Source: an uncultured Alphaproteobacteria bacterium
Lineage (GTDB): Bacteria > Electryoneota > RPQS01
Direction of reading: 5' to 3'
NCBI GenBank assembly: GCA_964370805.1
Contig: CAYJKM010000002.1
Span: 1,599-65,598, forward strand
Length of the DNA stretch: 64,000 nucleotides
Shown: piece after piece, positions 21,920 through 40,630 of the stretch
Numbering within the stretch: position 1 is the first letter of the stretch
Layout of the letters: every line of letters starts with the position of its first letter
Translations under genes and position numbers: made by a program
The notes under the pieces: model-generated
What the model saw: only the letters and a program-made list of their open reading frames with translations
Databases searched by the model: none
Told to the model about the DNA's origin: nothing

Positions 21920-22909
21920 ATGCCACGCTGGGTGGACCACTACGGCCGCATTCACGATTACTTGCGAATCTCGCTGACGGATCGCTGCAATCTGAGTTGT
22001 TCATATTGCAAGCCGTTACAAAGACCGGAGCCGCAACCGGCCGGCCAGTTGCTTTCGGCCGATGAGATTGTTCGCCTTGTTGCCATCCTGGCTCGTCACG
22101 GCGTGCGCAAGCTGCGCTTCACCGGCGGCGAACCGACGCTTCGCCACGACCTGCCCGAATTGATCCGGCGCTGCACGCGCATTCAGGGAATCGAGACGAT
22201 TGGGCTGACCACAAACGGAGTCCGATATTCGGAACGTGCCATTGAATTGAAACAAGCCGGTTTGACAGGCGTCAACATCAGCCTTGACAGCCTGAGTCCC
22301 GCGACGTTTGCACAAATCGCCGGACGGAATGAGCTAAAGCATGTCCTCCGCTCGGTTGAAACGGCGATCGGTCTTGGTTACCGTCCGGTGAAAATCAATA
22401 CCGTGATCATGCGAGGGCTAAACGACCACGAAGTACTCGATTTCGTAGAATGGACGCGCGCTCTGCCGGTCAATGTACGTTTCATCGAGTATATGCCCTT
22501 TCGCGGCAACAAGTGGGATTCCGCAAACCTCGTAACATACGACGAGCTTCGCGAACGGATCGAGACTCGCTACGATTTGCATGCGCTTCCGGAAACGTAT
22601 ATCGCGAACCGCATGGCCGAAGACTTCGCGATTCCCGGACATCAGGGCTCAGTAAGCATCATTGCCTCCATGACTCGTTCCTTTTGCCGAAGCTGTTCGC
22701 GGCTGCGCCTGACGGCGGATGGGTCTTTGAAGGCCTGTCTGTTCTTCCCTGCGCAGATCAACCTGCGTGAAGCGCTGCGTGCGGGCAAGACGGACTACGA
22801 ACTTGCGGCCATGCTGCGTGCCGGAATCGCGGCGAAACCGGCCGGCCATCCTGATCCTGCCAGCCTCTCGCACACCAATGACTTGAGTATGATTGAAATC
22901 GGCGGATAA
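21920..22909 (+). CDS. moaA: GTP 3',8-cyclase (Moco biosynthesis protein A), radical SAM
   Basis: 329 aa. CNLSCSYC radical-SAM motif near the N-terminus, and C-terminal Cys residues for the second cluster (CRSCSRLRL). Confidence 0.85.
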   Translation: MPRWVDHYGRIHDYLRISLTDRCNLSCSYCKPLQRPEPQPAGQLLSADEIVRLVAILARHGVRKLRFTGGEPTLRHDLPELIRRCTRIQGIETIGLTTNGVRYSERAIELKQAGLTGVNISLDSLSPATFAQIAGRNELKHVLRSVETAIGLGYRPVKINTVIMRGLNDHEVLDFVEWTRALPVNVRFIEYMPFRGNKWDSANLVTYDELRERIETRYDLHALPETYIANRMAEDFAIPGHQGSVSIIASMTRSFCRSCSRLRLTADGSLKACLFFPAQINLREALRAGKTDYELAAMLRAGIAAKPAGHPDPASLSHTNDLSMIEIGG

Positions 22910-22911
22910 CC

Positions 22912-23856
22912 ATGCGCGACATCTCACACAAGACGAATACCCTGCGCACTGCCTTTGCCCAGGCCACCCTTGCCATGGCTCCCGAGACCGTGAAGCGAGC
23001 CGTCAGCGGTGACCTGCCCAAAGGATCACCGTTTGACGTCGCCAAAGTCGCAGCGATCATGGCCGCGAAAAACACCGGCGCCATCATTCCCTATTGTCAC
23101 CCGCTGCAAGTGGATTTCGTGGGAGTCAATTTCGAAACGGCCGTGGACTCGATTTCAGTAACGGTAGAAGTGAAAGCGGTCTATAAGACCGGTGTCGAAA
23201 TGGAGGCGCTTACGGCCGCCGCCGTCGCCGCGCTGACGTTGTACGACATGCTGAAATCGGTGGATGACTCGCTGGTCATCAAGGACGTACGGTTGCTGGC
23301 AAAAAGCGGCGGCAAATCCGATTACGAGGAAGAACAGCCCCTCGAACTTCGCGCCGCCGTACTGGTGTTGTCCGATTCAATCTCGGCCGGAAGGCAATCA
23401 GACCGGTCCGGGCAAGCGATCGCAGAGCGCTTGACGTTAGAGGGGATTCATGTCGCCGAGTCCCGCGTCATCCCTGATGATCGGAATGTCATTACATCGG
23501 TCGTCCGCGAGTGGTGCGACGTTCAACACTATGATCTCATTATTACCACCGGCGGCACCGGCTTCAGTCCGCGGGACAACACGCCGGAAGCGATGCAGGA
23601 TGTTTTCGAGCGGGAAATCCCCGGAATTCCCGAAGCCCTGCGCGCCTACGGCCAGAACCGCACTCCCTTCTCCATGCTTTCCCGTGGCACGGCGGGGATT
23701 CGTGGAAATTCGATCATCGTCAATCTTCCGGGTTCGACTCGCGGCGTGCAGGATTCGCTCGATGTACTTTTCCCGGCGTTAAAGCATGCTTTTCGCATGA
23801 TCCGCGCGCAGAGTCACGCGTCTCGCTTAGAAGGCCCGGCAGAGCAGCAATCATGA
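22912..23856 (+). CDS. moaC: Bifunctional MoaC (cPMP synthase) / MoaB-MogA-like protein
   Basis: 314 aa. The N-terminal half matches MoaC (AKVAAIMAAKNTGAIIPYCHPL...KTGVEMEALTAAAVAALTLYDM...KSGGKSDY). The C-terminal half is MogA/MoaB-fold (VLVLSDSISAG...IITTGGTGFSPRDNTPEA). Confidence 0.8.
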   Translation: MRDISHKTNTLRTAFAQATLAMAPETVKRAVSGDLPKGSPFDVAKVAAIMAAKNTGAIIPYCHPLQVDFVGVNFETAVDSISVTVEVKAVYKTGVEMEALTAAAVAALTLYDMLKSVDDSLVIKDVRLLAKSGGKSDYEEEQPLELRAAVLVLSDSISAGRQSDRSGQAIAERLTLEGIHVAESRVIPDDRNVITSVVREWCDVQHYDLIITTGGTGFSPRDNTPEAMQDVFEREIPGIPEALRAYGQNRTPFSMLSRGTAGIRGNSIIVNLPGSTRGVQDSLDVLFPALKHAFRMIRAQSHASRLEGPAEQQS

Positions 23857-25049
23857 TTCGTTTCGCCGAAGCTCAAGAGATCGTTGTCAGCCATTTACCC
23901 GCTCCGCGGTTTGAGTATGTCGGTTTGGAGCAGGCTTGCGGGTGCGTTCTTGCGGAAGATGTTCTGGCGCTGGCGGACTCGCCTCGTTTTGACTGCTCGT
24001 CCGTTGATGGCTTCGCAATCGCCGTAAATGGCGGACCTCCGGTACACGAATTCGTGCTCGGGGAAACGATTGCTGCAGGTGCCCCCTCGTCAACGCGTTT
24101 GCCGCTCGGCTGCGCTGCGCGCATTCTCACGGGGGCCGTTGTCCCGGAGGGCAGCAACGCCGTGGTTATGAACGAGGCATGTCGTGAGTGCAATGACCGG
24201 GTGTATATGGACACGGTTCCTTGCCCCGGCGACAATATTCGACGGCGTGGCGAAGAATATCAGCGCGGAGATCTGATCCTGCAATTCGGTGCCAAGCTTA
24301 ATCCCGCCGCCATCGGAACGCTTGCATTCAATGGGATAACGACCGCAAGGGTTTTCAGCCGACCGCGGGTGGTGTTGATCACAACAGGTAGCGAGATCGT
24401 CGAACCCGGTGCCACTCTCCGCGCCGGCCAGAACTACAATGCCAATCGATGGAGTCTGGTCGCGGCGCTGCGCTCGTTAGATGTTACTCCGGCGGCCATT
24501 CAGCATGTCCGGGATGACAAAGCCGAGGTCCTTGCCGTGCTGGAAGCGGCGTCAGCGTCAGCGGACATTATGATCACCACCGGCGGCGTATCCGTCGGCA
24601 TGACGGATTATCTTCGCCCGGTAATGCAGGAATTGGGTTGGAATATTCGTTTCGATCAGGTTGCCATCAAACCCGGTAAGCCGACATGTTTCGGTACGCG
24701 CGGCCAGCAGCTTTGGTTTGGTCTGCCCGGCAATCCGCTCGCCGCCCAGATTTCCTTTCAGCACTTTGTTCGCCCGACCATCCGCAAACTGACGAGACAG
24801 ACAGACGATTCGCTGAGACTTCAACCGGCTGCACTGACGCATCCACTGTCCAAACGACCGGGGCGCTTGGAGTTTGTACGGGGCATGGCGTGGGATGAAG
24901 GTGAAGTCCTGCTCGTCAAACCTCACAGTCACCGCGAATCGCACATGCTGAGCAGTTTGGTGACGTCCAACTGTCTGATTCACTTTCCGGAGGAAGCCGA
25001 ACATCTCCCGGCGGGGGAGTGCGTTGAAATCGAATTCCTGACATGGTGA
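23853..25049 (+). CDS. moeA: Molybdopterin molybdotransferase
   Basis: 398 aa MoeA fold (SPRFDCSSVDGFAI..., TTGGVSVGMTDY, GLPGNPLAA). Confidence 0.8.
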   Translation: MIRFAEAQEIVVSHLPAPRFEYVGLEQACGCVLAEDVLALADSPRFDCSSVDGFAIAVNGGPPVHEFVLGETIAAGAPSSTRLPLGCAARILTGAVVPEGSNAVVMNEACRECNDRVYMDTVPCPGDNIRRRGEEYQRGDLILQFGAKLNPAAIGTLAFNGITTARVFSRPRVVLITTGSEIVEPGATLRAGQNYNANRWSLVAALRSLDVTPAAIQHVRDDKAEVLAVLEAASASADIMITTGGVSVGMTDYLRPVMQELGWNIRFDQVAIKPGKPTCFGTRGQQLWFGLPGNPLAAQISFQHFVRPTIRKLTRQTDDSLRLQPAALTHPLSKRPGRLEFVRGMAWDEGEVLLVKPHSHRESHMLSSLVTSNCLIHFPEEAEHLPAGECVEIEFLTW

Positions 25050-25528
25050 AGACAGCTCAAGGCCGCGTGGTAGCCCTCTCGATCAGTGCGCGACGCGGTA
25101 TTCCCAAAGGCAATGTTTCCGTTGTTGAGCTCGTCGCAGATTGGGGAATTGAAGGTGACGCTCACGCGGGAAAATGGCATCGCCAAGTCAGCCTGCTCCC
25201 CATCGAGAGCATCGCGAAAATGCACCTGAAAGGAATTCATGTCCGCCCCGGAGGATTTGCGGAGAACATCACGACCGAATTCGTCGAATTGCCGCAGCTT
25301 CACATCGGCGACACTCTGAGGATTGGTGAGGCCGAGCTGGAGCTCACTCAAATCGGCAAAGAATGCCACAACAAGTGCGCTATCTATTTCCGTGCCGGCG
25401 ACTGCGTGATGCCGCGAGACGGTGTGTTTGCCATCGTGAAACGCGGGGGACGCGTGCAGATCGGAGATGGCATCATCGTGAAATCCCCGGAAAGAAGCGA
25501 GACGGCGTTGAGCGAGGTCAGCGGCTGA
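25043..25528 (+). CDS. MOSC-domain protein (YiiM/YcbX-like)
   Basis: 161 aa MOSC beta-barrel signature (GIEGDAHAG...RQVSLL...GENIT...L.IGD.L.IGEAELELT...C). Confidence 0.65.
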   Translation: MVKTAQGRVVALSISARRGIPKGNVSVVELVADWGIEGDAHAGKWHRQVSLLPIESIAKMHLKGIHVRPGGFAENITTEFVELPQLHIGDTLRIGEAELELTQIGKECHNKCAIYFRAGDCVMPRDGVFAIVKRGGRVQIGDGIIVKSPERSETALSEVSG

Positions 25529-26280
25529 TGCTCACGGGATCTGAAGGGCTGCTCGCTGCCGGGGTGTTCGTCATCGCCGCGCTCTATAGTTCCGTGGGAC
25601 ATGGCGGTGCATCCGGTTATCTGGCGCTGCTGGCGCTGCTCTCCTATGCTCCCGCCCAAATGGCCACAACGGCGCTCACGCTCAACATTCTGGTAGCATC
25701 GGTGGCCGCTTACAGCTATTGGCGTGGCGGACACTTCTCGTGGCGGCTGACCTGGCCGTTCCTCCTGACGTCCATGCCATTCGCTTTTTTGGGCGGCACG
25801 CTGCAAGTGTCACAGGGTGCGTACAGCTTGCTGCTGGCGTTCGCTCTTGCCGTGGCCGCACTGCGACTTGTGTTTGCCAAGCGGTTTGCCAACCACGAAT
25901 CGAGACCGGTGCGCATCTCCGTGGCGCCGGCAATCGCAGCGGGTTCCGGGATCGGGTTGATCTCCGGCATCGTGGGAGTCGGCGGCGGGATCTTTCTGAG
26001 TCCGCTGCTCATTCTGCTCGGGTGGGCTGCCGTCAAGCCGACCGCTGCGACGGCTGCGGTCTTTGTCGCCCTCAATTCTGCAGCCGCACTTGCAGCGCGA
26101 TCCATGTACGGCACGATTAACGTGGACGCTATCGGCTGGCTGCCGGTCGCGGCTTTCGCCGGGGCAATCGTCGGTTCACAGATCGCTGTCACTCGCTTCC
26201 GTCAGCCGGCGCTATTGCGCGCGCTTGCTGTCGTGTTGCTGATTGCGACAGCGAAGTTGGTCTTGATCGCTGTGCACTGA
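25528..26280 (+). CDS. TauE/SafE (DUF81) family permease
   Basis: About 250 aa from the ATG at 25528 (overlapping the MOSC stop). Multi-TM with duplicated GxGGG motifs (VGHGGASGY / VGVGGGIFLSPLL). Confidence 0.6.
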   Translation: MLTGSEGLLAAGVFVIAALYSSVGHGGASGYLALLALLSYAPAQMATTALTLNILVASVAAYSYWRGGHFSWRLTWPFLLTSMPFAFLGGTLQVSQGAYSLLLAFALAVAALRLVFAKRFANHESRPVRISVAPAIAAGSGIGLISGIVGVGGGIFLSPLLILLGWAAVKPTAATAAVFVALNSAAALAARSMYGTINVDAIGWLPVAAFAGAIVGSQIAVTRFRQPALLRALAVVLLIATAKLVLIAVH

Positions 26281-27150
26281 CCTTCTCAATTTAGTAGGTT
26301 TCGCGGCGCCGGAAGCGCGAAAGATTGTGGTTTGAGAGGTTGTTTCGCTCGCGCCGGTCTTCGATCTGCCCTCTGAGGAGTGCCACCGATTGTGACTGAG
26401 GTTGGGCTGCAAAGTCTCCGCCCGTTCAGTGAGTGCGCGACTCTCTGAAGCATAACGCTTCGCCAAATTAGAATCAGGGCCGCTCAGGGGCGGCTTTGAT
26501 CATACAGCCGGAGATCGGTGTATGCCGCAGCGAATCACTCATTCAACATCCGACGAGGCGTGCAGACCGACTTAGGCAAGATCGCGATCAAGCAACCCTT
26601 ACGAAGCAAGGTTTCTGCGCGGATCAGGACCAAGAAAGGCTGCTTGGCTAGAGGGAGTCTTTTCCCCTGTCCGAATACCGGGCTTATTACCGCCTGCGCT
26701 CGTCTTGGAGTCAACGGGTGAGGTGTGCCGGTACGTCTTGACGGAAGTTGATAGAGATTGGTTCTTGTTTCCATATGGCGGCCTTCTACATAGGAGGCTG
26801 TTTTTGTAAAGGTTAAGTCATTCTATCGGCTCGCGTCGACATTCTGGTATTTGGGGAAATGTTGTGTAATCAGATAGCTACGGTAGAGTTCACTTATTTT
26901 GCATCAAATCCTTGCAATCTTCCACGAAGCGTGTATATTCTGAAACAAGCGTGGAGACCATAGGTTTACGCTCAGATTTGCGATTATTTTAATCTCAGGG
27001 CTTGTCTTATTCGTCCGGGAATATGAAACTGCATCGCGACAGAAAACGAACTATATATGACAGCCTGCAAGTACGAGTAGTTGGTATCGTGCACGGCGCG
27101 GGCCAATCGTCCGCTCAGACCCATTCCCGCAGGTTTCCACATCAATAAAA

Positions 27151-27191
27151 GACCGCCGTCAAGCCTGCGTTGACGGCGGTTCCTATCTTTT
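27151..27191 (+). terminator. Rho-independent terminator-like hairpin (possibly bidirectional) in the leader of the island's first gene
   Basis: GACCGCCGTCAA - 7-nt loop - TTGACGGCGGT (11-12 bp GC-rich stem) followed by TCCTATCTTTT and preceded by AAAA. It lies 40 nt upstream of the ATG at 27234 and at the end of a roughly 950 bp ORF-free gap. Confidence 0.55.
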
Positions 27192-27233
27192 GAAGTCTCC
27201 GCGACGGCAGCATATTAGAAGCAGTGTCGCTAC

Positions 27234-28979
27234 ATGAACAGCGAGCTCAAGGCGTCAATGGCAAACGTCGACAACGCGGGTACGACCCGTCTGCAATTCC
27301 ATTATCGCGTTAAAGTCGGCGTGACCGGCCACCGAGTTTTGCCGCAGGATAGTGAATTAGCGGGACGGATTCAGGATGTCCTTACCGACATCGAGCAGAT
27401 TGTCGGACCATCGGGCGGGGTTGCCATCCAATGGGAAATTCTCAGTTCGCTGGCAGATGGTGCAGATCGTCTTGTGGCCCGTGAAGTGCTGAAGCGAGGC
27501 GATGCGCGGCTGCGGGCTGTTATTCCGATGATGATCGCGGAATACAAAACAACGTTTGGTCTGGACGCTCATGGTAGTCCCATGTCAGACCGCTCAATCG
27601 AAGTCTCGCATCGAGAGTTCGATGAGTTGATCGCGGACTCTCGCACTCGCCCGGTCTTTCTTCATGGGAAACCGATTGCCGAGGATGCGGCACCCGCTGA
27701 GGCAACTCAAAAGGCACGTCACGACGCTTACCGCGAAGCAGGAGAATACATCCTGCGCCACTGTGATTTCCTGATCGCATTGGTTGATCCCAATCGTCCG
27801 AAGCGACGGGGTGGGACACATGACATCCTGGGCGAAGCTCGCAAGCTCCGCGTGCCGACGTATGTGATTGATCTCCGGCAGGCTCCGTTCCCCGTGCGGC
27901 GCAAACGATTGGGGCACTTCGACCACTCCGGAATTCGCGCCATCAACGCCTTTGCTGCCCCGGCCGTTCGCAAGGCTGGGAGCGAAACGGAATTTGACGA
28001 GTGGTTGCGGCCGTTCCGGAAATCGACGAGCGCAGATCTGAATGCGGAGTTGCTTATACAAGTTGAGAAGCGCCTGATCCCCTACTACACCAAAGCGTCG
28101 CAGCTGGCAAAGACCAATCAACACGCTTACCGCACAACCGGGATTGCCATCTATCTCTTTGCGATCGTCGCCATACTGCTGGTGACGGTTGGGGCGATGG
28201 TGGAGAAATGGAGTCTGGGATTCTTCACCGCTGAAGCCATCGCTCTTGCCGGAATTATCCTGCTGATTGGAGTGGCGCGCAAGCAGGGATACCACCGTCA
28301 ATGGATCACGTTGCGGTTTCTGGCTGAGCGCTTGCGTGCAGCATCTTTTCTAACCGCGGTTGGTGTTCGCCCGTCGCAGTTGCGCCGCGGCCCTGCGCCC
28401 ACGGGGATTGTGGCGCAATGTGACTGGACGGCTCACGTCTTCAATCGCATCATCGCTCAGGTGGTGTTTCCTATTTCCGGCGACGCGGCCCCGCTGGAGG
28501 CAAAACGACGGTTTATCACGGAGCAATGGCTGCGGGACCAACAACGCTGGCACCTTCGGAGAGCCGTAGAGCATATCGTGCGAAATCGCTGGTTCGAGAC
28601 TCTGGGGAGTCTCTTATTCTATGCGACTCTGATCACGGCCTTCGTGCACGCCATTGCACATATGGAATCAAGATTCCTGCGCCAATTCGCGACCCTGGCC
28701 GCACTTGCATTCCCTGCGATCGGCGCGGCCTTCAGCTGGTTCCGCAGCCACCGCGAATACGAACGACTCGCAACGCGCAGCCGAGAAATGTCGGATCAGC
28801 TCTTGGAGCTGGCATTTGAAGCGGACACCGCTACGGAGCAGAAACATGAATCCGACCGCGAGTCACCTCCGATGACGCAATTTGAAAACATCGTTCGGCG
28901 AATCGACGACATCATGCTGACTGAATCGCAGGACTGGCGTGGACTGGTTCGGTTTCTCAACGTGACCAAACCGCATTAA
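27234..28979 (+). CDS. SLOG-like (DprA/LOG-superfamily Rossmann) domain fused to a two-TM (SLATT-like) membrane effector domain
   Basis: 581 aa. The N-terminal roughly 230 aa has SLOG-like motifs (VGVTGHR, SSLADGADRLVAREVL, RRGGTHDILGEARKLRVPTYVI). Two adjacent TM helices at about aa 300-350 (IAIYLFAIVAILLVTVGAMV / FFTAEAIALAGIILLIGVA) are followed by a cytoplasmic C-terminal domain. Confidence 0.5.
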   Translation: MNSELKASMANVDNAGTTRLQFHYRVKVGVTGHRVLPQDSELAGRIQDVLTDIEQIVGPSGGVAIQWEILSSLADGADRLVAREVLKRGDARLRAVIPMMIAEYKTTFGLDAHGSPMSDRSIEVSHREFDELIADSRTRPVFLHGKPIAEDAAPAEATQKARHDAYREAGEYILRHCDFLIALVDPNRPKRRGGTHDILGEARKLRVPTYVIDLRQAPFPVRRKRLGHFDHSGIRAINAFAAPAVRKAGSETEFDEWLRPFRKSTSADLNAELLIQVEKRLIPYYTKASQLAKTNQHAYRTTGIAIYLFAIVAILLVTVGAMVEKWSLGFFTAEAIALAGIILLIGVARKQGYHRQWITLRFLAERLRAASFLTAVGVRPSQLRRGPAPTGIVAQCDWTAHVFNRIIAQVVFPISGDAAPLEAKRRFITEQWLRDQQRWHLRRAVEHIVRNRWFETLGSLLFYATLITAFVHAIAHMESRFLRQFATLAALAFPAIGAAFSWFRSHREYERLATRSREMSDQLLELAFEADTATEQKHESDRESPPMTQFENIVRRIDDIMLTESQDWRGLVRFLNVTKPH

Positions 28980-29316
28980 AGCAACTTTGCATGTTATTCC
29001 GGCGGAAGCCGGGAGTGTTTGGTAGTGAATCGCAAGAGAAGGACATCCGGCCGGGGATTGTCAGCAGATCGAGTTTAGGGTCTGAGATTTGACCAGATCA
29101 ACCTCGCGTACAATTGATGACGATCGAGAGCTTGCAGTAGGTGTTGCAGCTGAAAGTGAAGCGAGTCACGCAGTGCAGGCAGACCCGATGGCGATGCCGG
29201 CCCGCAGAGAAGTTCTCCAACAGAAAGCAAACGGCGGCAAGCAGGAGACCGTGCGATAGCCTCGGCGCCCATCATGATCATTTCAATGAACCGGCAGCGA
29301 GTTAAATTTCGAGGCC

Positions 29317-31728
29317 ATGAACAGCGAACAGCATAAACAATTTCTAACCAAGTACGCGCTTGAAAGAGGCGCGTATGCAGAGTTCGCGGCACAATTAGAG
29401 ACCATATTGGGCCGAGCAGCAAGCCTTTATGCTCCTCTGGCTGTCATTCAGACCCGTGCCAAGAGTCTCTCGAGCTTTTCTGAGAAGGCGGTGCGAAAAG
29501 GAGACAAGTATCGAGACCCGCTGCGCCAGATGACGGATCTGTGCGGGGCACGTGTGATCGTACATACGCTTGAGGAAGTGGATCGAATCTGTGAATTTAT
29601 CAAGGCGAATTTCGAGATCGACGAAACGAACAGCCTGGACCTGCGCACGCGACTGTCCGCAAGTGAATTCGGCTATCTCTCTGTGCACTACGTTGTTTCC
29701 CCGAAACGGGCGGAAATCCTGGGAGTGCCGATTCCGCCGGGGATCCGTGATCGAAAAGCGGAGATCCAGGTGCGAACCATTCTGCAGCATGCCTGGGCCG
29801 ATATCAGTCACGACCGGATCTACAAGAGCACGTTCAAAATCCCGGAGCGTTGGATCCGGGAATCCGCTCGCCTGGCTGCCGTCCTGGAAAATGCGGACGC
29901 CGCCTTTGCGCGGCTGACAAGCGTGATGGACGATCTTGCAGCCCATTACGGTGCTCTGCTGACGCAAGATGAGTTCGAGCAGGAGACAGACATTCTGAAA
30001 ACCGTGCTGGCAAATGAGCCGGATCCTGAGAACAGACCACGGATTGCTCTGCGTCTGGCACGGCTCTTTGCGGCCAGTGAACAGTGGTCGCGGGCAATCA
30101 CAGTTCTCGAGGAATATGTTGACAACCAGGCTTCAGTGTTGCCCCAGATGCAAAGCGAATTAGGCCGAGCTTACTGTGAGGCTCATCGGGGCCTACCCGA
30201 CCACGAACTGTTTCGCCGGGGAACATTGTTGCTGCGGGCGGCCGCGGAAAGACAGGCCGATCCGCTGCGTCCGTCAGGTGAAGATGCGAACAGTCTGCGG
30301 GCAGCATCCTTATCTTATCTTGCCAAGTCGTACCGGTACGCAGACAACCCGGCGACCGACATACGTGACGTGCTGCTCGAAGCTCACCGGCTGCACCCCG
30401 CTAATCCGTATTACTTTGCGGCGTTTATCGAGTCGGATATCATTGCCCGAGGCGACACCGCTTCACTGCCCTTGCTGGGAAATGCTATTGGCGCCGCAAT
30501 TCGTACGTGCCAGGAACACATCGAATTCGGATTAGAACTGCCCGAGGCGTTTTTCACGATTGGAAAACTTCGGATTCTCCTGCATCAGCCGTACCAGGCG
30601 CTAAGTGCCTATGCAAAGGCTGTGGATGTGAGCCGATCGGGCAAGAACCGTGTCTCAAGGGCCAAACTTCAGGATGAAATCGAACGTCTTCAGAGTCTTC
30701 AAACTTATCTGCCGCGTTCCGAAGCGTTAGAGTGGGCTTTGCGGTTCTTGCACGTTGCAGTGAAGGCGTTTTGTGATGCGCCGCAAAATGAAGGCACAAG
30801 CACAGCGACATCCTTGCCTGTCGTTTACCTTGCCGGGAGTCTTCAGCCGCCAGCGGGATATTCCGACAACTTCTACCGCGAGATGCTGGCGGCAGTATTT
30901 CACAAGTATGATGGGTTGCTGATTACGCCAGTGGCCATCCCGCCGGAGCATCTCGGTAAGCACCCGGTGCGCAAATGCGATGGAACGGTGCCCGAGATAC
31001 TGAGCATTCTGGCTGAGTTGGTTGACAGCGGCAACGCGGTGGCTAAAGTCCCAGTAATCTGTATCGGCGGCGACGCCAATGCGGCCGCGGCGTGTCACGT
31101 TGCCCTTGCACTGGGGGCAACGGTCGGCGCTGTCGCATCCAGCGGCGGAGCCGCTTCTAACTTGATGCACGACGACGACTGGCATGATCATGACCGGCTC
31201 CTGGCGCTTCCGCACGATCGCATGACGCTCTGGGCCTTTATTAATGCAAGCGGCAAGTCTCCCTGGACGGCGGCTCAACTTGAAGCTGCGGCGCGGAGCG
31301 TGCATGAGCACTATTTGCAAATGAGAACTGAGGGGCAGCCAGAGCTTTCGCTGGTCCCCTGGTCATTCTTGGACGAGTCCCTCAAGGAATCGAATCGGCA
31401 ACAAGTGCTGAACATGAGTCAAGCACTCGCATACGCGGGAGTCATTACTGATTTCGGCCGGCCATCAACATCTGTCCCGGAACTTACACCAGCGCAAGTG
31501 GAATTAGTTGCGGAACTGGAACATGGCCGCTGGAATGTGGAACGATTGAAGGATGGGTGGAGGCCTGGACCAAAGAAGGACATTGCCGGGAAAATCAGTC
31601 CTTACCTGGTGGGTTGGAAAGATCTCCCTGAACAGATCAAAGATTATGATCGAAATGCGGCCAGGCAGTTTCCGGCAATCGTCTCAGCGTCAGGCTTGGA
31701 AATCACGTACCCGGTTCCCCACACTTGA
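29317..31728 (+). CDS. RelA/SpoT-like nucleotide pyrophosphokinase (alarmone-synthetase fold) fused to TPR-like helical region, SLOG-like domain and C-terminal RyR domain
   Basis: 803 aa. The synthetase motifs RAKSLSSFSEKAVRK, DLCGARVIV and EIQVRTILQHAWADISHDRIYK lie at aa about 40-170. A helical TPR-like middle follows. A Rossmann-like VVYLAGS...VICIGGDANAAAACHVALALGATVGAVASSGGAASNL segment (SLOG/LOG-like) follows that. The C-terminal LAELEHGRWNVERLKDGW.PGPKKD..GKISPYLVGWKDLPEQIKDYDR matches the RyR domain consensus. Confidence 0.65.
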   Translation: MNSEQHKQFLTKYALERGAYAEFAAQLETILGRAASLYAPLAVIQTRAKSLSSFSEKAVRKGDKYRDPLRQMTDLCGARVIVHTLEEVDRICEFIKANFEIDETNSLDLRTRLSASEFGYLSVHYVVSPKRAEILGVPIPPGIRDRKAEIQVRTILQHAWADISHDRIYKSTFKIPERWIRESARLAAVLENADAAFARLTSVMDDLAAHYGALLTQDEFEQETDILKTVLANEPDPENRPRIALRLARLFAASEQWSRAITVLEEYVDNQASVLPQMQSELGRAYCEAHRGLPDHELFRRGTLLLRAAAERQADPLRPSGEDANSLRAASLSYLAKSYRYADNPATDIRDVLLEAHRLHPANPYYFAAFIESDIIARGDTASLPLLGNAIGAAIRTCQEHIEFGLELPEAFFTIGKLRILLHQPYQALSAYAKAVDVSRSGKNRVSRAKLQDEIERLQSLQTYLPRSEALEWALRFLHVAVKAFCDAPQNEGTSTATSLPVVYLAGSLQPPAGYSDNFYREMLAAVFHKYDGLLITPVAIPPEHLGKHPVRKCDGTVPEILSILAELVDSGNAVAKVPVICIGGDANAAAACHVALALGATVGAVASSGGAASNLMHDDDWHDHDRLLALPHDRMTLWAFINASGKSPWTAAQLEAAARSVHEHYLQMRTEGQPELSLVPWSFLDESLKESNRQQVLNMSQALAYAGVITDFGRPSTSVPELTPAQVELVAELEHGRWNVERLKDGWRPGPKKDIAGKISPYLVGWKDLPEQIKDYDRNAARQFPAIVSASGLEITYPVPHT

Positions 31729-31859
31729 CACGAGTTTCCCGATCTTGTCCGGGACTACAGAGTGGTTGCGCGGGCTGGCCTGAATGATCCGATTCTCAGC
31801 CACTGAAGAGTGGTTATCCCAAACAGCGTATTTCATCTCAACCGAATGATGCAGCGAAT

Positions 31860-32408
31860 ATGAAACCTCCGAAGACGGAAGGTTTATTCGACTATCCATT
31901 GCCGATCCCGCGTCACACGCTCTACGAAGAGCTGGGCCTGGGCCCCGAGGCGACGCCGGAAGAGATCCGGGAGGCCAAGGCTGAAGCCGTGCGGAAACTT
32001 CGTGCGCGCCGTGCAGCCATTCAGACGAGGATGGCGAGCCTGACCGCCGGTTCGCACCCCTCGCGAACGCAGCACGCAGAGCAAGAACAGCATGAGCGTG
32101 AGCTTCGACAGCTCCGCGCGGAGCACAAGAAGCTCGAGGAGCGGGAAGTGCAGATCAATACCATTGGCTTGGAATCCACTGAAAAGCGACGCCAGTACGA
32201 TGCGGAACATCCACCGCTCGCTCTGTTGAAACTCGCGCCGCCGGCGGGGGATGTGTTCAAAGATAATCGCCTCGTAATCGTTCTTCTGCGCCGGGAATTG
32301 TCAGCGTTTCTCCAGCAGCGCGGCATGGATGTGTTTCATCCCTCGGATCTGACACGCATCGATTTCACGTCTGACTTCACTTATTTTGAAATTCTGGACG
32401 GAGAATAG
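31860..32408 (+). CDS. Divergent J-domain-like protein (HPS instead of HPD), otherwise hypothetical
   Basis: 182 aa. N-terminal LYEELGLGPEATPEEIREAKAEAVRKL...SHPS resembles J-domain helices II and III but is non-canonical, with no Zn-finger or C-terminal domain. First gene of a tightly packed operon. Confidence 0.35.
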   Translation: MKPPKTEGLFDYPLPIPRHTLYEELGLGPEATPEEIREAKAEAVRKLRARRAAIQTRMASLTAGSHPSRTQHAEQEQHERELRQLRAEHKKLEEREVQINTIGLESTEKRRQYDAEHPPLALLKLAPPAGDVFKDNRLVIVLLRRELSAFLQQRGMDVFHPSDLTRIDFTSDFTYFEILDGE

Positions 32409-32411
32409 ATC

Positions 32412-33203
32412 ATGACGTCTCGAACGCCCAAAGCCGGTCGCAAGCGACCTTCTGCGGCCGGGAAGAAAGCCGGGCGCCTTGCCGGGGACAGACCGGATTC
32501 GCAAAACACGGCGACGAGTCTGCCTCTTGGCGGCGACTCAATCCCGTTGCCATCGGAACCTGAGATTTACCGGGTGGATGCGGCGGTGGTGGCTGAAAAG
32601 TATGCACACCGGCCACCGCGCGGTGATCACGGCTCAACCCGCTTCCCGTGGCGCGAGCACGTGCACCGGCTGGAAGCCGGCATCGAAGAAATGAACGATG
32701 ACATGCTTGTGCAGTTGAAGCAGCTGCAGGGACTTCAGTCACAGCTGTCAGAACTGTCGGAATTGGTGCATGCTCTGCGCGTGACGCATTTGAGCGAGTT
32801 GCGCAGCATGGCGATCTCGCTGGACAATCTCCGCCGCGATCTGATTTCCGAACGCCAGGCATTCTCGGCACGGAGCACGTTTAACGCCGTCCTGCCGTGC
32901 CTCGACTCGCTGATGCGGATGCAAAGTGCCGCCAACCGGAATTCGCAGTCCGAATTTGAAGCACAACTTGCCGCCACAGTAGACACACTGAGGCGAGCGT
33001 TAAGTGGGTTGGGATTTACAGAATTTACCTGCTCACCTGGAGAGCGATACGACCCCGTACTGATGGAATGCCTGGGTGAGGCGGACGGTGAGAACGGTGT
33101 TGTGCTTGCGATTGTCCGGCCCGGATACCGGGTCGGTACAATCATCGCTCGGCCCTGCGGAGTCTTGATCTCATGCTCATCAAACGAAACTGAAATCCAA
33201 TAG
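32412..33203 (+). CDS. GrpE-like nucleotide-exchange-factor homolog
   Basis: 263 aa. A basic disordered N-terminus, a coiled-coil middle, and a C-terminal beta-domain GENGVVLAIVRPGYRVGTIIARPCGVLIS resembling the GrpE C-terminal signature. Confidence 0.5.
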   Translation: MTSRTPKAGRKRPSAAGKKAGRLAGDRPDSQNTATSLPLGGDSIPLPSEPEIYRVDAAVVAEKYAHRPPRGDHGSTRFPWREHVHRLEAGIEEMNDDMLVQLKQLQGLQSQLSELSELVHALRVTHLSELRSMAISLDNLRRDLISERQAFSARSTFNAVLPCLDSLMRMQSAANRNSQSEFEAQLAATVDTLRRALSGLGFTEFTCSPGERYDPVLMECLGEADGENGVVLAIVRPGYRVGTIIARPCGVLISCSSNETEIQ

Positions 33204-33214
33204 AGGAATGGACG

Positions 33215-35215
33215 ATGTGGCACACAGTCATTGGAATTGATTTGGGAACTACGTACAGTGCGGTGGCCTCCTATCATGCTGGTCAGGAACAGGCGATGTT
33301 GATTGAAGACCATAATGAAGGGAACGCACTGACCACCCCTTCCGTAGTGGGATGGGATTCCGGCGCCGGCAGAGTCATTGTGGGGCGAACCGCCCGACGA
33401 ACCGTTCGTGCATTGCAGAAGCCGATCATCGAAATCAAGCGTGAAATGGGAGAAGTATTCGATGAGAAGTTGCTCGACCGCTTTAATGCCCGCGGGGTGT
33501 ACAATGTCGGCGACCCGGTCCGCGTCTTCTTTGCCGGCGAATGGCTGCTGCCGCAGGAGATTAGTGCGTTCACGCTGACCCGAATGCGGCAGATTGCTGA
33601 ACAGGAACTCCGTACGGAGATCCGGGACGCGGTGGTCACGGTTCCGGCCTATTTTACCGACAAACAAAAGAGTGCGACATATGAAGCGGCGCTGCTGGCA
33701 GGACTGTACCCGCGGCAGTTAATCGCAGAGCCGACGGCGGCGGCAATCTGTTACGGCGTGGACACGTGGAACCCTGACCGTCGAGTCTACCTGGTCTACG
33801 ATCTGGGCGGAGGCACATTTGATGTTTCGATTATCGAGGTGGAGGGCGAGCGGATTGATGTTATTGCCACGTCGGGGGACCGCCGCCTGGGCGGCAGCGA
33901 TTTCGATAACGCCATTACCGAATGGGCCATGAACGAGCTGAAGCGGGATGGATTGGACGTGCTGCAGGTTCCCGCAGGCAGGGAACTGCTCAAGCAGGCC
34001 GCGGAAGAGGCCAAGATCCTTCTCAGCTCGTATCAAGAGACGAAGCTGAATCTGGCAGAAGTCTATCCCAATCGGCCGCCGCAACTCATTTTGACCCGCG
34101 AGAAATTCCTGGAGCTGATTAATGCGGACCTGCGAAAGTCCCTGAGCTTTGTCGATGACGCGTTGGAGCGTGCGCAACATAATCGCAATATTGCCCGCGA
34201 GGACGTCTCGGCAGTACTTCTGGTGGGTGGATCAACACGGATTCCTAAAGTCCGCGAGATGCTCGCCGAACATTTTCTCAAAGATGCATCATTTGTGCGA
34301 GCCGATGCGGATCCTGACGCCGTGGTGGCGCGTGGCGCGGCTGTCGTAGCCCACCGGTTTGAGCCCACGCCGCCACCCTTCGACATTACCCGGCCAACGG
34401 ACGACGCGTCGAATATTCGACTGGCGGATGACGGCTTGGTGATCGGGCTAATTACGGAGCATTCGCTCGGCGTCGGGACTGCTAACCACGATCTCGTGGA
34501 CAAGATCGTCACTCAGGGCACCAGTATTCCGGTCACGGTGACCAAGAGCGGCTACACCAATTCGGGCCAGGGAAGCTATACCATGGTTCCCGTTTGTCAA
34601 GGCGAAGGCGATTACCTGCCGCAGAACACCAAAATCGGTGAATTAAAAATTGGGCCTCACGCCGCGTCTCCACCGGGAACGCATCAGTTTGAAGTAACCT
34701 TTGCGTTGGACGTGAATGGACTTTTGACGGTGAGCGTTCGTCACATCAATGAGAACAAGACGTACACAGATCAATACGTTCGCAAGACCAGCGTCGGCGG
34801 CCTGGCCGCGCTGGTTCCGCTTTACAACCGCATCCTTCGTTATTATTTTGGAGCCGGAGGCGCCACTGATTTGAACCTTCCGCCGCCACAGCTTGATGAT
34901 CACCGAGCCCCAACCGATGACTCCACCACGCCGCGGGAAACTCCGCCCTATCCGGGCACGGAGGGCAAGAGTCTTCCACGTCCCGGGGCAGCAGCTTCAC
35001 CCACGCTTGTTGAGGTTTCCGGAAATGTCCCGGAAGCTTTCAAGAGCCTTGTGCGGCGATCCCAGAAACTTCTGCTGTCCAAACTGGATGTTCAACTCGC
35101 GGAGCGCTTTAATCGGTTTGTCAGTGCGCTGAATGCGAGTGCATCCAACGAGAAGCTGGAGGAACTGGCTGACGAACTTGAGGATGCCTATCACGATGCC
35201 CGCACGCAGTCCTGA
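33215..35215 (+). CDS. Hsp70 (DnaK-like) paralog, non-housekeeping
   Basis: 666 aa. NBD motifs IGIDLGTTYSAVA, DLGGGTFDVSI and LLVGGSTRIPKV are present. The SBD-beta is recognisable (CQGEGDYLPQNTKIGELKIG...EVTFALDVNGLLTVS). The canonical lid is replaced by a Pro-rich divergent C-terminus. Confidence 0.8.
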   Translation: MWHTVIGIDLGTTYSAVASYHAGQEQAMLIEDHNEGNALTTPSVVGWDSGAGRVIVGRTARRTVRALQKPIIEIKREMGEVFDEKLLDRFNARGVYNVGDPVRVFFAGEWLLPQEISAFTLTRMRQIAEQELRTEIRDAVVTVPAYFTDKQKSATYEAALLAGLYPRQLIAEPTAAAICYGVDTWNPDRRVYLVYDLGGGTFDVSIIEVEGERIDVIATSGDRRLGGSDFDNAITEWAMNELKRDGLDVLQVPAGRELLKQAAEEAKILLSSYQETKLNLAEVYPNRPPQLILTREKFLELINADLRKSLSFVDDALERAQHNRNIAREDVSAVLLVGGSTRIPKVREMLAEHFLKDASFVRADADPDAVVARGAAVVAHRFEPTPPPFDITRPTDDASNIRLADDGLVIGLITEHSLGVGTANHDLVDKIVTQGTSIPVTVTKSGYTNSGQGSYTMVPVCQGEGDYLPQNTKIGELKIGPHAASPPGTHQFEVTFALDVNGLLTVSVRHINENKTYTDQYVRKTSVGGLAALVPLYNRILRYYFGAGGATDLNLPPPQLDDHRAPTDDSTTPRETPPYPGTEGKSLPRPGAAASPTLVEVSGNVPEAFKSLVRRSQKLLLSKLDVQLAERFNRFVSALNASASNEKLEELADELEDAYHDARTQS

Positions 35216-36704
35216 TCTTCCTCGCGAGTTGGACATTGACTTTATGGGTGACGGGCGCAAACGCGTGGTTCGTGTCGGTTCGGCCATGTGGGGTCACGTG
35301 TTCGCGGCAGAGCCAGAGCGCACGTTCTACCGGATTATTCCGTTGGCATACCTGCCAACTTGGGAGATGCGGCAAAAGGCTGTGGCTCTTGTCGGTCGCG
35401 ATCCGTTGCCGGGATTGCCGCGCTACCTGCGGGCGGAGCAAGTTACCATCGCGGACGATGACGGGTATTTTGTGATCGAGTATCAGGTGGTGTCCGCAAG
35501 CGCGCCAGCTTTCGACTTAGAGACGGCTGACCCGCTTCGCAGGCTGGAACGGGTGTGTGCAGTGATGAATGAGCTTGGGGCCTGGCGCCAGCGGTTGGAT
35601 CAGGCGCTCTTTCTCATGCCGTCGGATATTGTCTTCGTAGACAACATTCCCATCCTGCTGTTTACGCCGGATTGGGGGCTGCCGCCCCTTGACGCGATCT
35701 TTCAAGAGCCGATCCGATCCCGCTATCTGCCGCCGGAGGCCATCACGGGCAAGGATTCAATTCTCTGGCGTGGCAATAGCGACGTCTTTTCGCTGGGGAT
35801 GATCGCGCTGCAGTGTTTTTACACCCTTCCTCTTGCCGACGATTCTGAAACGGCGTTGATGCTTGCAGCAGCGGGTTCAGTCCCCGAACTGTCCAGTCAG
35901 CCGGGCACATTGCCTTACTGGATGTACAAGGCTCCGGGCTTGCAGGAGGCGCTGAAACTATTGTCCCGGACCGTTTCCTCTGCTCGCGTGCGCAGCGCCG
36001 TCGAACCCTTTTCGCTGGCCCGGTCGCTGAATCAATGCCGTACCCGCATGCTGCCGGAGCGCGCCGCCGAAGAACTGCGCCAGATGGGACAGTCGCGCGA
36101 GGCCTTCAACCTGCTTCATGATGCGATGCTGGTCCAAACCACGCATGAGCTTGCGTTACTGGCGGGCGAGATCGCGCTGCACGATCTGAATGATCCGCTG
36201 GAAGCCATTGACATTCTCGAAAAAGCCATCGAGCGGGATCACCATCGCGTCGCCGCTTACGTGCACCAGTTTGAGGCGATCAGCAAGCTGACTCGATTAC
36301 TCAATGAATTTCGGCTGCTTGAACAGGCTCCGTCCGCGCGAGAACGCATGGACGACCTGATCTGGCGCGACTTCAACCGGATGGACGCGGATCAGCAGCG
36401 GGATAATGAGGTCGCGATGAGTCGGTATTTTCTCTTTCGCCGTCAGTATGAGGCAGCGGCTCATTTTATCTTCCCGCGGTTGCGCATGGGCGCGACACAC
36501 ATGTGGTGGAAGTTTGACTTGAATCTCAATTACGTACGCGCATTGGCCGGGCAGCAGCGAATCGCCGAGGCGTCAGCGTTGCTGCGGTACGTTGCCGGCA
36601 AACTGGACTTTGCCCGCCAGGGCAAGACCCTGGCTCATCATGAAATCACGCGTTTAGATGCCGACGTGCGCGAACTGGCCGACCAACTGAGTGTCGAATT
36701 GTGA
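35184..36704 (+). CDS. Protein-kinase-like (probable pseudokinase) domain fused to helical/TPR-like C-terminal region
   Basis: About 507 aa. Kinase-like subdomains are degenerate: SDIVFVDN in place of HRD..N, DWG in place of DFG, YLPPEAITGK for the APE region, and DVFSLGMIALQCF for subdomain IX. Catalytic His/Arg/Lys are missing. It overlaps the Hsp70 stop. Confidence 0.45.
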   Translation: MPITMPARSPDLPRELDIDFMGDGRKRVVRVGSAMWGHVFAAEPERTFYRIIPLAYLPTWEMRQKAVALVGRDPLPGLPRYLRAEQVTIADDDGYFVIEYQVVSASAPAFDLETADPLRRLERVCAVMNELGAWRQRLDQALFLMPSDIVFVDNIPILLFTPDWGLPPLDAIFQEPIRSRYLPPEAITGKDSILWRGNSDVFSLGMIALQCFYTLPLADDSETALMLAAAGSVPELSSQPGTLPYWMYKAPGLQEALKLLSRTVSSARVRSAVEPFSLARSLNQCRTRMLPERAAEELRQMGQSREAFNLLHDAMLVQTTHELALLAGEIALHDLNDPLEAIDILEKAIERDHHRVAAYVHQFEAISKLTRLLNEFRLLEQAPSARERMDDLIWRDFNRMDADQQRDNEVAMSRYFLFRRQYEAAAHFIFPRLRMGATHMWWKFDLNLNYVRALAGQQRIAEASALLRYVAGKLDFARQGKTLAHHEITRLDADVRELADQLSVEL

Positions 36705-38545
36705 AGCACTTATGTTCTCGCATGTTTTCCTTCCGGCGGCTTGCAGCGTCTGCATTAATACTGTTGTGCCTGTTTTCATTGTCGCGCATCCGGGCTGCGG
36801 ATTCAACCCTCGGAATTCATTCCACGACACAGTCCGCGGACTCAATATGTGGATGCTGCGGCCGATCGCTCAAGACTGCCGCGCGGCTTTCCGATACCAC
36901 CCTTACCCCATTGCTGGAGCAGAGAGCCCGGCAGGTTGCAAGCCGGGAGCGATGGACAACCATACTGGCCGGGGCTGGACTGCTGGCCCTGGTCGTGTTC
37001 TATTTTGCAGTGCTGGTCCCACACCGTCGCCGCCGGCCTCTGACAGAGGCCCTGCGGCGGCTAACGGCTGCTTCACTCTCGGAAGCAGAACTTCAGGCCA
37101 TTGAATCGCTGTTGGATCGGGCTCTGACGGCCGGGTTGCGCCGAACCGATATCGCGGAGGTGCGCTTTCATCTGGCGTTTGTCCGAACACAACTCGGGCG
37201 GTACAAAGAAGCCTTGGGGGTGCTGAGTGACTTGAAGGGCGAGCCCAAACGGCGCAAGGAGATTGTCTATCTCGAACTGTATCTGCACTCCCGTCTGGAA
37301 GAGTATGTCGAGATGGAGCAGATTTTCGAGCAGCGCGGTAGTGTCCTCGATGGTTATCTAGACACCGCGCTGATGATGGGGATCGCGCTGCTGCATCTCG
37401 GGCGGCAAAACTGGAAACGGAGGGATATCGAGCAAGCCGTGCGCTATTTCGAGCGCGTCCGATCTCTGGGCGTATTGCTGGATGAAGTCCCTGCTAACGT
37501 CGGTGATCACCAGATTCTCCTCGGAGTGCTGGTCTTATTTGACAAGGATGTTGTCGGTGCACGAGCGCACTTCGACGGCGCGAAAACGTCGGCGGAAGCG
37601 AACACTGTCACGTCGTTGCAGGCCGAATTAGGGCTGCTGCTCTGCGATTGGATTTCCGAGGAGATGCCGGACATTGACGGCGGGCTGCTCCAAGCCGTAG
37701 GGATGATGGAGCAGCAATTCGGCTTCCCGCGCGATTCGCAACATGAAGGCGAAGCCGCTGACACCGCAGAGCATCTGGCCGGCGAGAATTTGGAGCGGCT
37801 TTATGTAGCGCTGCTGCTTTGGCATGCCGTCTCTTTGATTTACACGTGGTTCCGGCTTCCCGCGAAGACCCGACTGCCCGAGACAGAACTGAGACAACTG
37901 GATGAGCGCGTGGAAAAAGTAAAGCAGGCCGACCCAGAGCTCGGAGATCCATACCTAATCCAAGGATTAATCCGCTACTACTTTGCCACGGACAATGATT
38001 CCAAGTGGCGTGCGGTGGAGTGCTTGGACACGGCTGTTCAGAAAGGGGCCCAAGTCCCGGAGGTCATAAGTTTGGTCGCCAGCGAAAAGCGGCTGGATGA
38101 ACTGGAGCGCGACCGGCTCGGGCGATTCTTGGCGCTGGTAAAGTCATGGTTGTCCAATCGTACGGTGCCGGATTCGATTCGCCGCCATCTGCAGGAAGAG
38201 CTGGCGAGATTCGACCGCTTCCATGTGCTTCAAGATGTCGAAATAGCCGGGGCGGATGAAGATATCGAGCCGTCGGTAAAGGATATCCGGAATCGCAGCG
38301 AGATTGTTCGGAAGCGAGTGCAGACCATCATCGGACAACTCCTCAAAACCGCGGAAACGACAGAGGCCACGGCCATCAACGAGCATCTCACACAGATATC
38401 CTCCGAAACAACAAAGATTGAAGAAGCAGTGAAGCAACTCGACAATCTGGAAGGGGAACTCATGCTGCAGGCCGGGCAATTCCTTTTGAAAGAAGAAGAT
38501 GAGCTGCCGCCAATCCTGCCGCAAGCGGGGGAGTCCGAGCCATGA
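36701..38545 (+). CDS. Membrane-anchored TPR/helical-repeat protein, hypothetical
   Basis: 614 aa. N-terminal hydrophobic signal-like segment plus a TM helix (ILAGAGLLALVVFYFAVLV), then long alpha-helical repeats. ATGA overlap upstream. Confidence 0.45.
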   Translation: MKHLCSRMFSFRRLAASALILLCLFSLSRIRAADSTLGIHSTTQSADSICGCCGRSLKTAARLSDTTLTPLLEQRARQVASRERWTTILAGAGLLALVVFYFAVLVPHRRRRPLTEALRRLTAASLSEAELQAIESLLDRALTAGLRRTDIAEVRFHLAFVRTQLGRYKEALGVLSDLKGEPKRRKEIVYLELYLHSRLEEYVEMEQIFEQRGSVLDGYLDTALMMGIALLHLGRQNWKRRDIEQAVRYFERVRSLGVLLDEVPANVGDHQILLGVLVLFDKDVVGARAHFDGAKTSAEANTVTSLQAELGLLLCDWISEEMPDIDGGLLQAVGMMEQQFGFPRDSQHEGEAADTAEHLAGENLERLYVALLLWHAVSLIYTWFRLPAKTRLPETELRQLDERVEKVKQADPELGDPYLIQGLIRYYFATDNDSKWRAVECLDTAVQKGAQVPEVISLVASEKRLDELERDRLGRFLALVKSWLSNRTVPDSIRRHLQEELARFDRFHVLQDVEIAGADEDIEPSVKDIRNRSEIVRKRVQTIIGQLLKTAETTEATAINEHLTQISSETTKIEEAVKQLDNLEGELMLQAGQFLLKEEDELPPILPQAGESEP

Positions 38546-38790: not shown

Positions 38791-38813
38791 GTGATTGGAC
38801 AAGTAAGCAGATC

Positions 38814-40601: not shown

Positions 40602-40630
40602 GTCAGGAAACGCGTGGAGTAGATTGCCGG

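Follow-up and report, generated by a model that had tools for sequence, protein, structure and literature searches.

The gene at positions 27234-28979 of the window (by which we mean the whole 64,000-nucleotide stretch of contig CAYJKM010000002.1 that was analysed) encodes a predicted membrane effector joined to a putative nucleotide sensor, and the question raised by its locus is which enzyme would supply the signal. The next gene, 338 nt downstream, is of the Rel type, as had correctly been noticed in an earlier reading made from the letters of the DNA alone (hereafter, the sequence-only reading), in which the two genes were taken for a nucleotide-signal producer and its sensor-effector. Our analysis points to another partner. 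Across genomes, the usual producer partner of these SLOG-SLATT proteins is a TIR-domain protein, not a Rel-type synthetase, and we consider it probable, at about 60%, that the window protein, here called SLOG-2xSLATT, serves a TIR-based, Thoeris-like conflict system as its ligand-gated membrane effector.

Judged from sequence comparisons, 27234-28979 (+ strand) is a real gene. A chance open reading frame (ORF) was ruled out because a word-indexed search returned 40 full-length homologues of 510-640 amino acids (24-49% identity), a scan of one genome per species returned at least 482 relatives, and the family profile, run against 1.84 billion cluster representatives, matched 4,985 of them at E<=1e-30, nearly all 510-600 amino acids long and aligned end-to-end. 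The relatives from the species scan span Acidobacteriota, Chloroflexota/Dehalococcoidia, Actinomycetes, Desulfobacterota-type lineages, Nitrospirales, and methanogenic archaea. The ORF encodes 581 amino acids, and the alternative start at the in-frame ATG 27258, which is the one used in the public gene call, gives a protein of 573 amino acids. Some family members (P0194, P0201, P0211, P0219, P0226, and P0326) are longer, with 690-805 amino acids and an extra N-terminal region of ~190-300 residues. The family profile covers them in two or three stretches, one of them matches YAcAr (a cpYpsA-related SLOG), and they may carry tandem SLOG domains. An N-terminal TIR fusion was considered for the longer members (700-800 amino acids) and rejected, as TIR was found in none of them. 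PADLOC holds no model for the SLOG-SLATT protein.

The N-terminal part of the protein (amino acids ~20-245; 27291-27968) is a cytoplasmic, YpsA-like SLOG domain. A fold search recovered the Rossmann-like alpha/beta fold common to LOG, DprA, and YpsA, with YpsA (PDB 2nx2) as the best structural match. Three motifs stand out in the alignment: GxTGHR (G29-x-T31-G32-H33-R34), after strand 1, and GADR (G76-A77-D78-R79) are invariant in 20-37 homologues, and the G-G-T195 loop is invariant across homologues. Within the second of these, G76-x-D78 is the counterpart of the GxD/E signature, which in the YpsA clade is the motif predicted to bind substrate (PMC6459960). Sequence models were less informative. 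Residues 1-270 fall outside every Pfam and NCBIfam match, and SLOG models give the window protein nothing at E<=1; among 37 homologues the cpYpsA model matches one, at 0.0015. A profile search of the domain against PDB gave nothing significant, with YpsA at E 1.1, and its top match, GAPDH (0.004), was set aside as a generic Rossmann match. Because the curated models fail to match the window protein, its place in the SLOG superfamily, nearest the YpsA clade, is established by fold and motifs, which bear out the SLOG-like Rossmann domain with DprA/LOG-type motifs of the sequence-only reading.

The same reading was mistaken about the membrane part, for which it had proposed exactly two closely spaced transmembrane (TM) helices. 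Both Kyte-Doolittle hydropathy and a full-length AlphaFold2 (AF2) model with a predicted local distance difference test (pLDDT) score of 86 give four helices in two hairpins: TM1 (302-322; nt 28137-28199), TM2 (328-348; nt 28215-28277), TM3 (455-475; nt 28596-28658), and TM4 (484-503; nt 28683-28742). In the model, one arrangement occurs twice: a long cytoplasmic helix continues into a TM hairpin whose outer loop is very short, and cytoplasmic helices follow. The cytoplasmic side holds the SLOG domain, the linker between the units, and the C-terminal helices. Unit 1 (amino acids 271-375; 28044-28358, + strand), delimited by hydropathy and AF2 helices, consists of a long pre-TM helix, TM1 and TM2, and a cytoplasmic helix, while unit 2 (amino acids 421-573; 28494-28952, + strand) consists of a pre-TM helix, TM3 and TM4, and two C-terminal cytoplasmic helices.

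Unit 2 scores 43.8 bits against NCBIfam SLATT_1 (cut-off 41; amino acids 431-569) and 25.2 bits against Pfam SLATT_1, just below the cut-off of 26.3. For unit 1, the window protein gives weak, sub-threshold matches to DUF4231 and SLATT_3. Among 37 family members, the models that match are SLATT_1 in 30, DUF4231 in 25, and SLATT_3 in 18, and the two units align with each other in register, weakly (hhalign P 46%). The protein is thus a SLOG domain followed by two tandem SLATT modules with four TM helices; the SLATT assignment of the sequence-only reading holds, and its picture of a single two-helix SLATT does not. A Foldseek search of the full-length model against PDB returned no solved structure resembling the whole protein at E<=0.001.

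The genes that accompany the family were surveyed at 87 further SLOG-SLATT loci, taking flanks of up to 10 kb in both directions; with the window these make 88 loci, and the TIR and RyR counts refer to 85 unique loci. Local hidden Markov models (HMMs) for the TIR domain (seeded with nine Pfam-verified neighbours and the window TIR protein of 577 amino acids, TIR577) and for the RyR region were iterated until convergence and run on the called ORFs of these loci. Among the unique loci, a TIR-domain ORF lies within 10 kb of the SLOG-SLATT gene in 63 (of 85) and within 300 bp in 34; the median distance to the nearest TIR is 174 bp, and the nearest TIR shares its strand with the SLOG-SLATT gene in 40. 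Pfam found TIR_2 in nine of the 10 adjacent genes checked. A Rel-type synthetase, on the other hand, occurs in only three of the 88 loci. Homologues do not, then, overwhelmingly lack a nucleotide-generating neighbour, which the sequence-only reading had named as a finding that would count against it. Of its Rel-type producer and SLOG-SLATT effector pair, the nucleotide-signalling neighbourhood of conflict type has stood, and the co-occurrence with Rel as a rule has not.

The homologue closest to the window protein (49% identity) illustrates the usual setting: its TIR gene lies 269 nt upstream, and next come DUF4062-NACHT-TPR, AAA-RyR, and TIR-TPR genes. More compact arrangements exist, as in L053, L060, and L072, with no more than ~10 nt between TIR and effector genes. 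At some loci, the TIR and SLOG-SLATT genes appeared at distance 0; a fusion was considered and rejected, the cause being over-extended ORF starts in high-GC genomes. Some TIR partners are themselves fused to CD225 (interferon-induced transmembrane protein-like) or to DUF4384 (L057 2706-3824, L070 8546-9751, and L077 8718-9962). As for cyclases, no CD-NTase/SMODS enzyme was seen among the Pfam-annotated neighbours, no CD-NTase model having been run over all loci.

RyR-domain proteins are a further recurrent company of the family. They lie within 10 kb of the SLOG-SLATT gene in 31/85 unique loci and within 500 bp in 21/85, and TIR and RyR occur together in 20/85. Three classes were distinguished: an N-terminus of unknown type followed by an AAA/MoxR-like ATPase and one or two RyR domains (18 ORFs), TrkA_N with RyR (11 ORFs), and RelA_SpoT with TPR, an LSDAT-type SLOG, and RyR (three ORFs, in the window, L021, and L026). 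A single SLOG-2xSLATT locus can hold several RyR proteins (e.g., L005 11757-14441 and L062 11756-13840), and the bacterial RyR domain may serve there as an adaptor or a ligand binder. Literature searches on RyR with TIR or toxSAS returned nothing relevant.

The Rel-type neighbour in the window belongs to the third of these classes. Its gene (29317-31728, + strand) encodes 803 amino acids with a RelA/SpoT synthetase domain (amino acids 37-185; nt 29425-29871; Pfam RelA_SpoT 6.7e-18), a TPR region, an LSDAT-type SLOG region (amino acids ~495-700; nt 30799-31416), and a RyR domain (amino acids 721-797; nt 31477-31707; Pfam RyR 2.4e-13). In 32 aligned members, the synthetase motifs RxKxxxSxxxK, DxxGxR, GYxSxH, and EIQxRT are all invariant. 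The SLOG region was assigned by homology because the window protein's own sequence gave nothing at E<=1 with the LSDAT_prok model (PF18171, "SLOG in TRPM, prokaryote"), which is found in 48 of 120 Rel-RyR homologues among the matches listed; the Rel homologue of L026 reaches 23.6 bits, below the cut-off of 25.4. As an hhalign comparison of the YpsA-like SLOG profile with the Rel-RyR profile gave no signal, the LSDAT assignment is based on the Pfam matches in homologues. On the Rel domain, PADLOC gave a weak or candidate match (PDC-S33).

The Rel-RyR family as a whole counts 405 matches at E<=1e-5, and its own neighbourhoods were examined at 80 metagenomic loci (L088-L167). A full-length SLOG-2xSLATT gene adjoins Rel-RyR at one of them (L112), and partial relatives at three. 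Two of the latter are 2xSLATT-only proteins of 364-371 amino acids without SLOG (L124 5934-7028 and L151 10969-12084) and one is a SLOG-only ORF of 191 amino acids (L147 12453-13028), all directly 3' of the Rel-RyR gene, so the modules of the window protein also occur apart there. TIR is present in 32/80 loci. The commonest immediate neighbours of Rel-RyR are a NUDIX hydrolase of ~140 amino acids (~24 loci), an HD/HD_4 protein (seven loci), and TrkA_N-RyR or AAA-RyR proteins; the window Rel gene has no NUDIX or HD gene beside it. Rel enzymes of the toxSAS type are toxic effectors that make (pp)pApp or pyrophosphorylate tRNA (PMC7229694, PMC11782079, PMC11559606). Because the family combines its own SLOG sensor with NUDIX/HD hydrolase partners, the Rel protein reads as a regulated effector, not as a signal source: most likely it is a second, parallel SLOG-gated effector, a toxSAS-type pyrophosphokinase, and the ligand of the SLATT protein probably comes from elsewhere.

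Both genes stand at the head of a co-directional array (27234-45422) of 10 genes, which share the + strand and either overlap slightly or are separated by short gaps, in the order SLOG-2xSLATT, Rel-RyR, J-like, GrpE-like, Hsp70, three proteins of 523, 614, and 595 amino acids, TIR, and a TPR protein of 1025 amino acids. The chaperone part (31860-35215) comprises a J-domain-like protein (182 amino acids, no HPD motif seen), a GrpE-like protein (263 amino acids), and Hsp70 (666 amino acids). It is followed by the three large TPR-containing proteins (35133-40601), which are conserved with the TIR gene, then by the TIR-domain protein itself (577 amino acids; 40631-42364), and finally by the giant TPR protein (42345-45422), the last gene of the conserved TIR block. 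The TIR domain spans amino acids ~5-135 (nt 40643-41035; Pfam TIR_2 8e-14), is the only one found in the window by the local TIR HMM, and has E87 at the catalytic position, a glutamate invariant in all 89 aligned TIR domains.

The eight genes at 31860-45422, with three proteins of 520-710 amino acids among them, recur as a block in at least four other contigs. In one (L171 700-15875), the whole series from J-like, GrpE, and Hsp70 through to TIR and TPR is present together with an AAA-RyR gene; in another (L170), the TIR end of the block stands with a RelA_SpoT-RyR gene and a NUDIX gene; in two more (L168 and L169), the contig is cut inside the Hsp70 gene, a fragment of which sits at its end. 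Since the homologues of the window TIR sit in the same block in L168-L171, the Hsp70-TPR-TIR block forms a unit that recurs in the company of RyR-domain proteins and is joined in the window to a SLOG-SLATT gene. The window Hsp70, GrpE-like, J-like, and TPR genes were found in none of the 87 other SLOG-SLATT loci, and the block is therefore no general partner of the SLOG-SLATT family. We found no description of it in the literature searched, and the sole PADLOC match within it is that of a candidate system to the TIR (PDC-S66).

The upstream edge of the array is marked by a strong hairpin (27151-27181), ~50 nt from the start codon, whose G+C-rich stem of 12 bp is flanked by A and T runs in the manner of a bidirectional terminator. 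It could end a transcript that is not annotated, or act as a leader element. The gap in which it lies (26281-27233) comprises 950 nt of non-coding, AT-richer DNA, with a promoter-like site at 26912-26939 and no match to Rfam families. Farther upstream are molybdenum-cofactor biosynthesis genes (21920-25528; MoaA-, MoaC/MogA-, and MoeA-like by sequence) and a TauE/SafE exporter gene (Pfam; 25363-26280), from which we conclude that the island was inserted among housekeeping genes. Just downstream of the array, 47018-49927 encodes a HerA/FtsK-like ATPase of 969 amino acids (Pfam DUF87; PADLOC mad8, HerA), a sign that the region may be a defence island. Of the marks of mobile elements sought around the locus, neither a tRNA nor flanking direct repeats were seen.

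From fold, motifs, TM topology, family size, and neighbourhood statistics, we infer a ligand, the gene that makes it, pore formation, and a role in defence along the following lines. Infection would switch on a TIR enzyme, in the window perhaps via the Hsp70/TPR machinery, and this enzyme, here likely the TIR protein at 40631-42364, would convert NAD+ into an ADP-ribose (ADPR)-derived signal. The YpsA-like SLOG domain would be the receptor, with an ADP-ribose-derived product of the TIR NADase as its likeliest ligand. On binding, the two SLATT hairpins would rearrange or oligomerise and the inner membrane would be breached or depolarised, so that growth stops (abortive infection). The Rel-LSDAT-RyR protein might respond in parallel, depleting ATP or blocking tRNA. 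Established Thoeris systems offer precedents for this scheme (bioRxiv 10.64898/2025.12.03.692087): the SLOG domain of ThsA binds TIR-made 3'cADPR, ThsH, the SLATT effector of type VII Thoeris, responds to cyclic ADP-ribose (cADPR), and one operon can hold two effectors responding to one TIR signal.

Several observations weigh against a TIR-gated effector at this locus. The nearest TIR gene in the window is 11.6 kb away with seven genes between, and it is a Rel-type enzyme that is adjacent. Many of the neighbouring TIRs in other genomes are fused to STAND, TPR, or WD40 modules, and there the TIR can be an NAD-depleting effector in place of a signal maker. At 11 of the 85 unique loci, neither TIR nor RyR lies within the available flanks (one of these has a DUF4062-STAND-TPR protein, and the others have zinc-ribbon, patatin, or unrelated genes). 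The conserved His33, Arg34, and Asp78 could be catalytic and not purely binding residues. Two TIR operons with an effector of the kind called "SLOG and 4TM", whose kinship to the window family is unproven, gave no phage defence in E. coli (bioRxiv 10.64898/2025.12.03.692087, Table S2). Finally, Rel-RyR adjoins SLOG-SLATT or SLATT-only genes in at least four to seven loci (the window, L021, L026, and L112; in partial form, L124, L147, and L151), and because this adjacency recurs, some direct coupling is possible.

That last observation also speaks for the pairing proposed by the sequence-only reading, in which the SLOG domain would bind the product of the adjacent Rel synthetase, taken here to be a (p)ppNpp-type nucleotide, and the SLATT effector would open in response. 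The Rel gene directly follows the SLOG-SLATT gene and has its orientation, the catalytic motifs of Rel are intact, and since the adjacency recurs in a handful of loci, the model keeps a small probability at the window locus. The wider counts speak against it, as Rel accompanies so few SLOG-SLATT genes where TIR accompanies most, the full SLOG-SLATT gene is found in a single Rel-RyR locus of 80, and TIR is also present in L026 and in three of the four Rel-side loci with full or partial relatives. The Rel protein, moreover, has the architecture of a regulated effector, with its own sensor and its usual hydrolase partners, and we know of no SLOG domain that binds alarmones. We regard the two-gene pair as unlikely. 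A further account would keep both enzymes and order them in two tiers, the TIR product binding the LSDAT SLOG of Rel-RyR, and Rel then making a second nucleotide, the ligand of the YpsA-like SLOG, whereby the signal would be converted or amplified. It has the merit of giving a role to each of the two SLOG clades in the locus (LSDAT-type and YpsA-type) and fits the presence of TIR, Rel-RyR, and SLOG-SLATT together in the window and directly contiguous in L026; the NUDIX/HD hydrolases beside Rel-RyR at other loci might break down a messenger and in this way set a threshold. As most SLOG-SLATT genes adjoin TIR without a Rel gene, however, the family needs no Rel step, neither NUDIX nor HD adjoins the copy in the window, and such a cascade has no precedent, all of which makes it improbable.

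A role outside immunity seems to us the least probable of the explanations considered. The protein would then be a housekeeping, nucleotide-regulated membrane protein (for example a channel, or a regulator of cell division or the envelope like YpsA). Alternatively, the SLOG domain would act as a LOG-like N-glycosidase, an enzyme that processes a nucleotide and does not sense it. To our knowledge, SLATT domains are known from conflict systems only, and the family is spread patchily over Acidobacteriota, Chloroflexota, Actinomycetes, Desulfobacterota-type lineages, and methanogens, where TIR, STAND, patatin, and caspase genes abound around it; both points speak against such a role. What speaks for it is that the closest structure, YpsA, is a cell-division regulator (PMC6459960), that the GGT(A/H)(E/D) loop resembles, in our own reading, the PGGxGTxEE motif of LOG, that 11 of the 85 unique loci lack TIR and RyR neighbours, and that the tested "SLOG and 4TM" operons gave no defence. 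The TIR-gated membrane effector thus remains our preferred explanation for the SLOG-2xSLATT protein, which is a member of a predicted, unvalidated kind of effector.

More tentatively, and with odds clearly against it, the whole 10-gene array may be one undescribed conflict system: a TIR controlled by chaperones and TPR proteins, whose product would fire two SLOG-gated effectors, the YpsA-SLOG-2xSLATT membrane breaker and the LSDAT-SLOG Rel pyrophosphokinase with RyR, the RyR proteins (Rel-, TrkA_N-, and AAA-fused) being a recurrent third component. In a sub-version of this possibility, the Rel product would be the second messenger for the SLATT protein. Three elements appear to be undescribed, namely the Hsp70-TPR-TIR array with two distinct SLOG-gated effectors, the Rel-LSDAT-RyR family, and the recurrent RyR partners. 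The interest lies partly in numbers: SLOG-SLATT fusions, with ~5,000 representative clusters, rank with the most frequent effectors of environmental bacteria that are predicted to be nucleotide-gated, and the neighbourhood statistics point to a TIR product as the ligand candidate for the abundant "SLOG and 4TM" class. The Thoeris repertoire could in this way be extended by an effector within a larger Hsp70-TPR-TIR array, by a Rel family with a SLOG sensor and RyR, and by RyR proteins as partners of both, and the combined features suggest chaperone-controlled TIR signalling and ligand-gated, alarmone-type toxins.

Compared with known systems, the parts of the locus are more familiar than their combination. 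SLOG and SLATT, including the SLOG-SLATT fusion class, were reportedly defined by Burroughs et al. in 2015. YpsA of B. subtilis (PDB 2nx2), besides being the best structural match, has the GxD signature in common with the window SLOG, but is a stand-alone, soluble inhibitor of cell division without a membrane module. The SLOG channels of the TRPM2/LSDAT type differ in having an unrelated transmembrane domain and oligomeric architecture, and they are eukaryotic channels, not suicide effectors. On the Rel side, toxSAS enzymes (FaRel, FaRel2, and CapRel, with their hydrolase antitoxins) resemble the Rel-RyR family in the intact Rel synthetase motifs and in the small NUDIX/HD hydrolase adjacent in the wider family; unlike those toxins, the window Rel protein has 803 amino acids with TPR, LSDAT SLOG, and RyR, and no adjacent hydrolase. 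The SLATT effectors of CBASS (2TM/4TM) likewise use the SLATT hairpin as a killing module triggered by a nucleotide second messenger, but their signal comes from a CD-NTase/SMODS enzyme, unlike any annotated neighbour seen here, cyclases not having been searched for systematically.

The closest known systems are those of Thoeris. Table S2 of a December 2025 preprint (bioRxiv 10.64898/2025.12.03.692087) names "SLOG and 4TM", from Streptomyces sp. GKU 895 and Ca. Nitrospira nitrosa COMA1, among putative Thoeris effectors still to be validated. Like the window protein, it combines SLOG with four TM helices (the order of the domains is not stated there), and it is predicted to be activated by a TIR signal. 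Its gene adjoins TIR, whereas the window copy has no adjacent TIR and lies beside the Rel-RyR gene and the Hsp70 block; the sequences of its partner TIRs match the TIRs of SLOG-SLATT loci weakly by BLAST, and the two families are likened by annotated domain content and by their TIR partnership. Type I Thoeris, with its SIR2-SLOG effector ThsA, is also among the closest known systems. ThsH, from type VII Thoeris (TIR and SLATT; cADPR), agrees with our reading of the window in pairing a SLATT membrane effector with a TIR signal generator and in the predicted formation of an oligomer that breaches the membrane. The two differ in how the signal would be received: in ThsH, SLATT alone is annotated and the ligand pockets are predicted between SLATT protomers, while the window protein has a separate, N-terminal YpsA-like SLOG domain and two SLATT units per chain.

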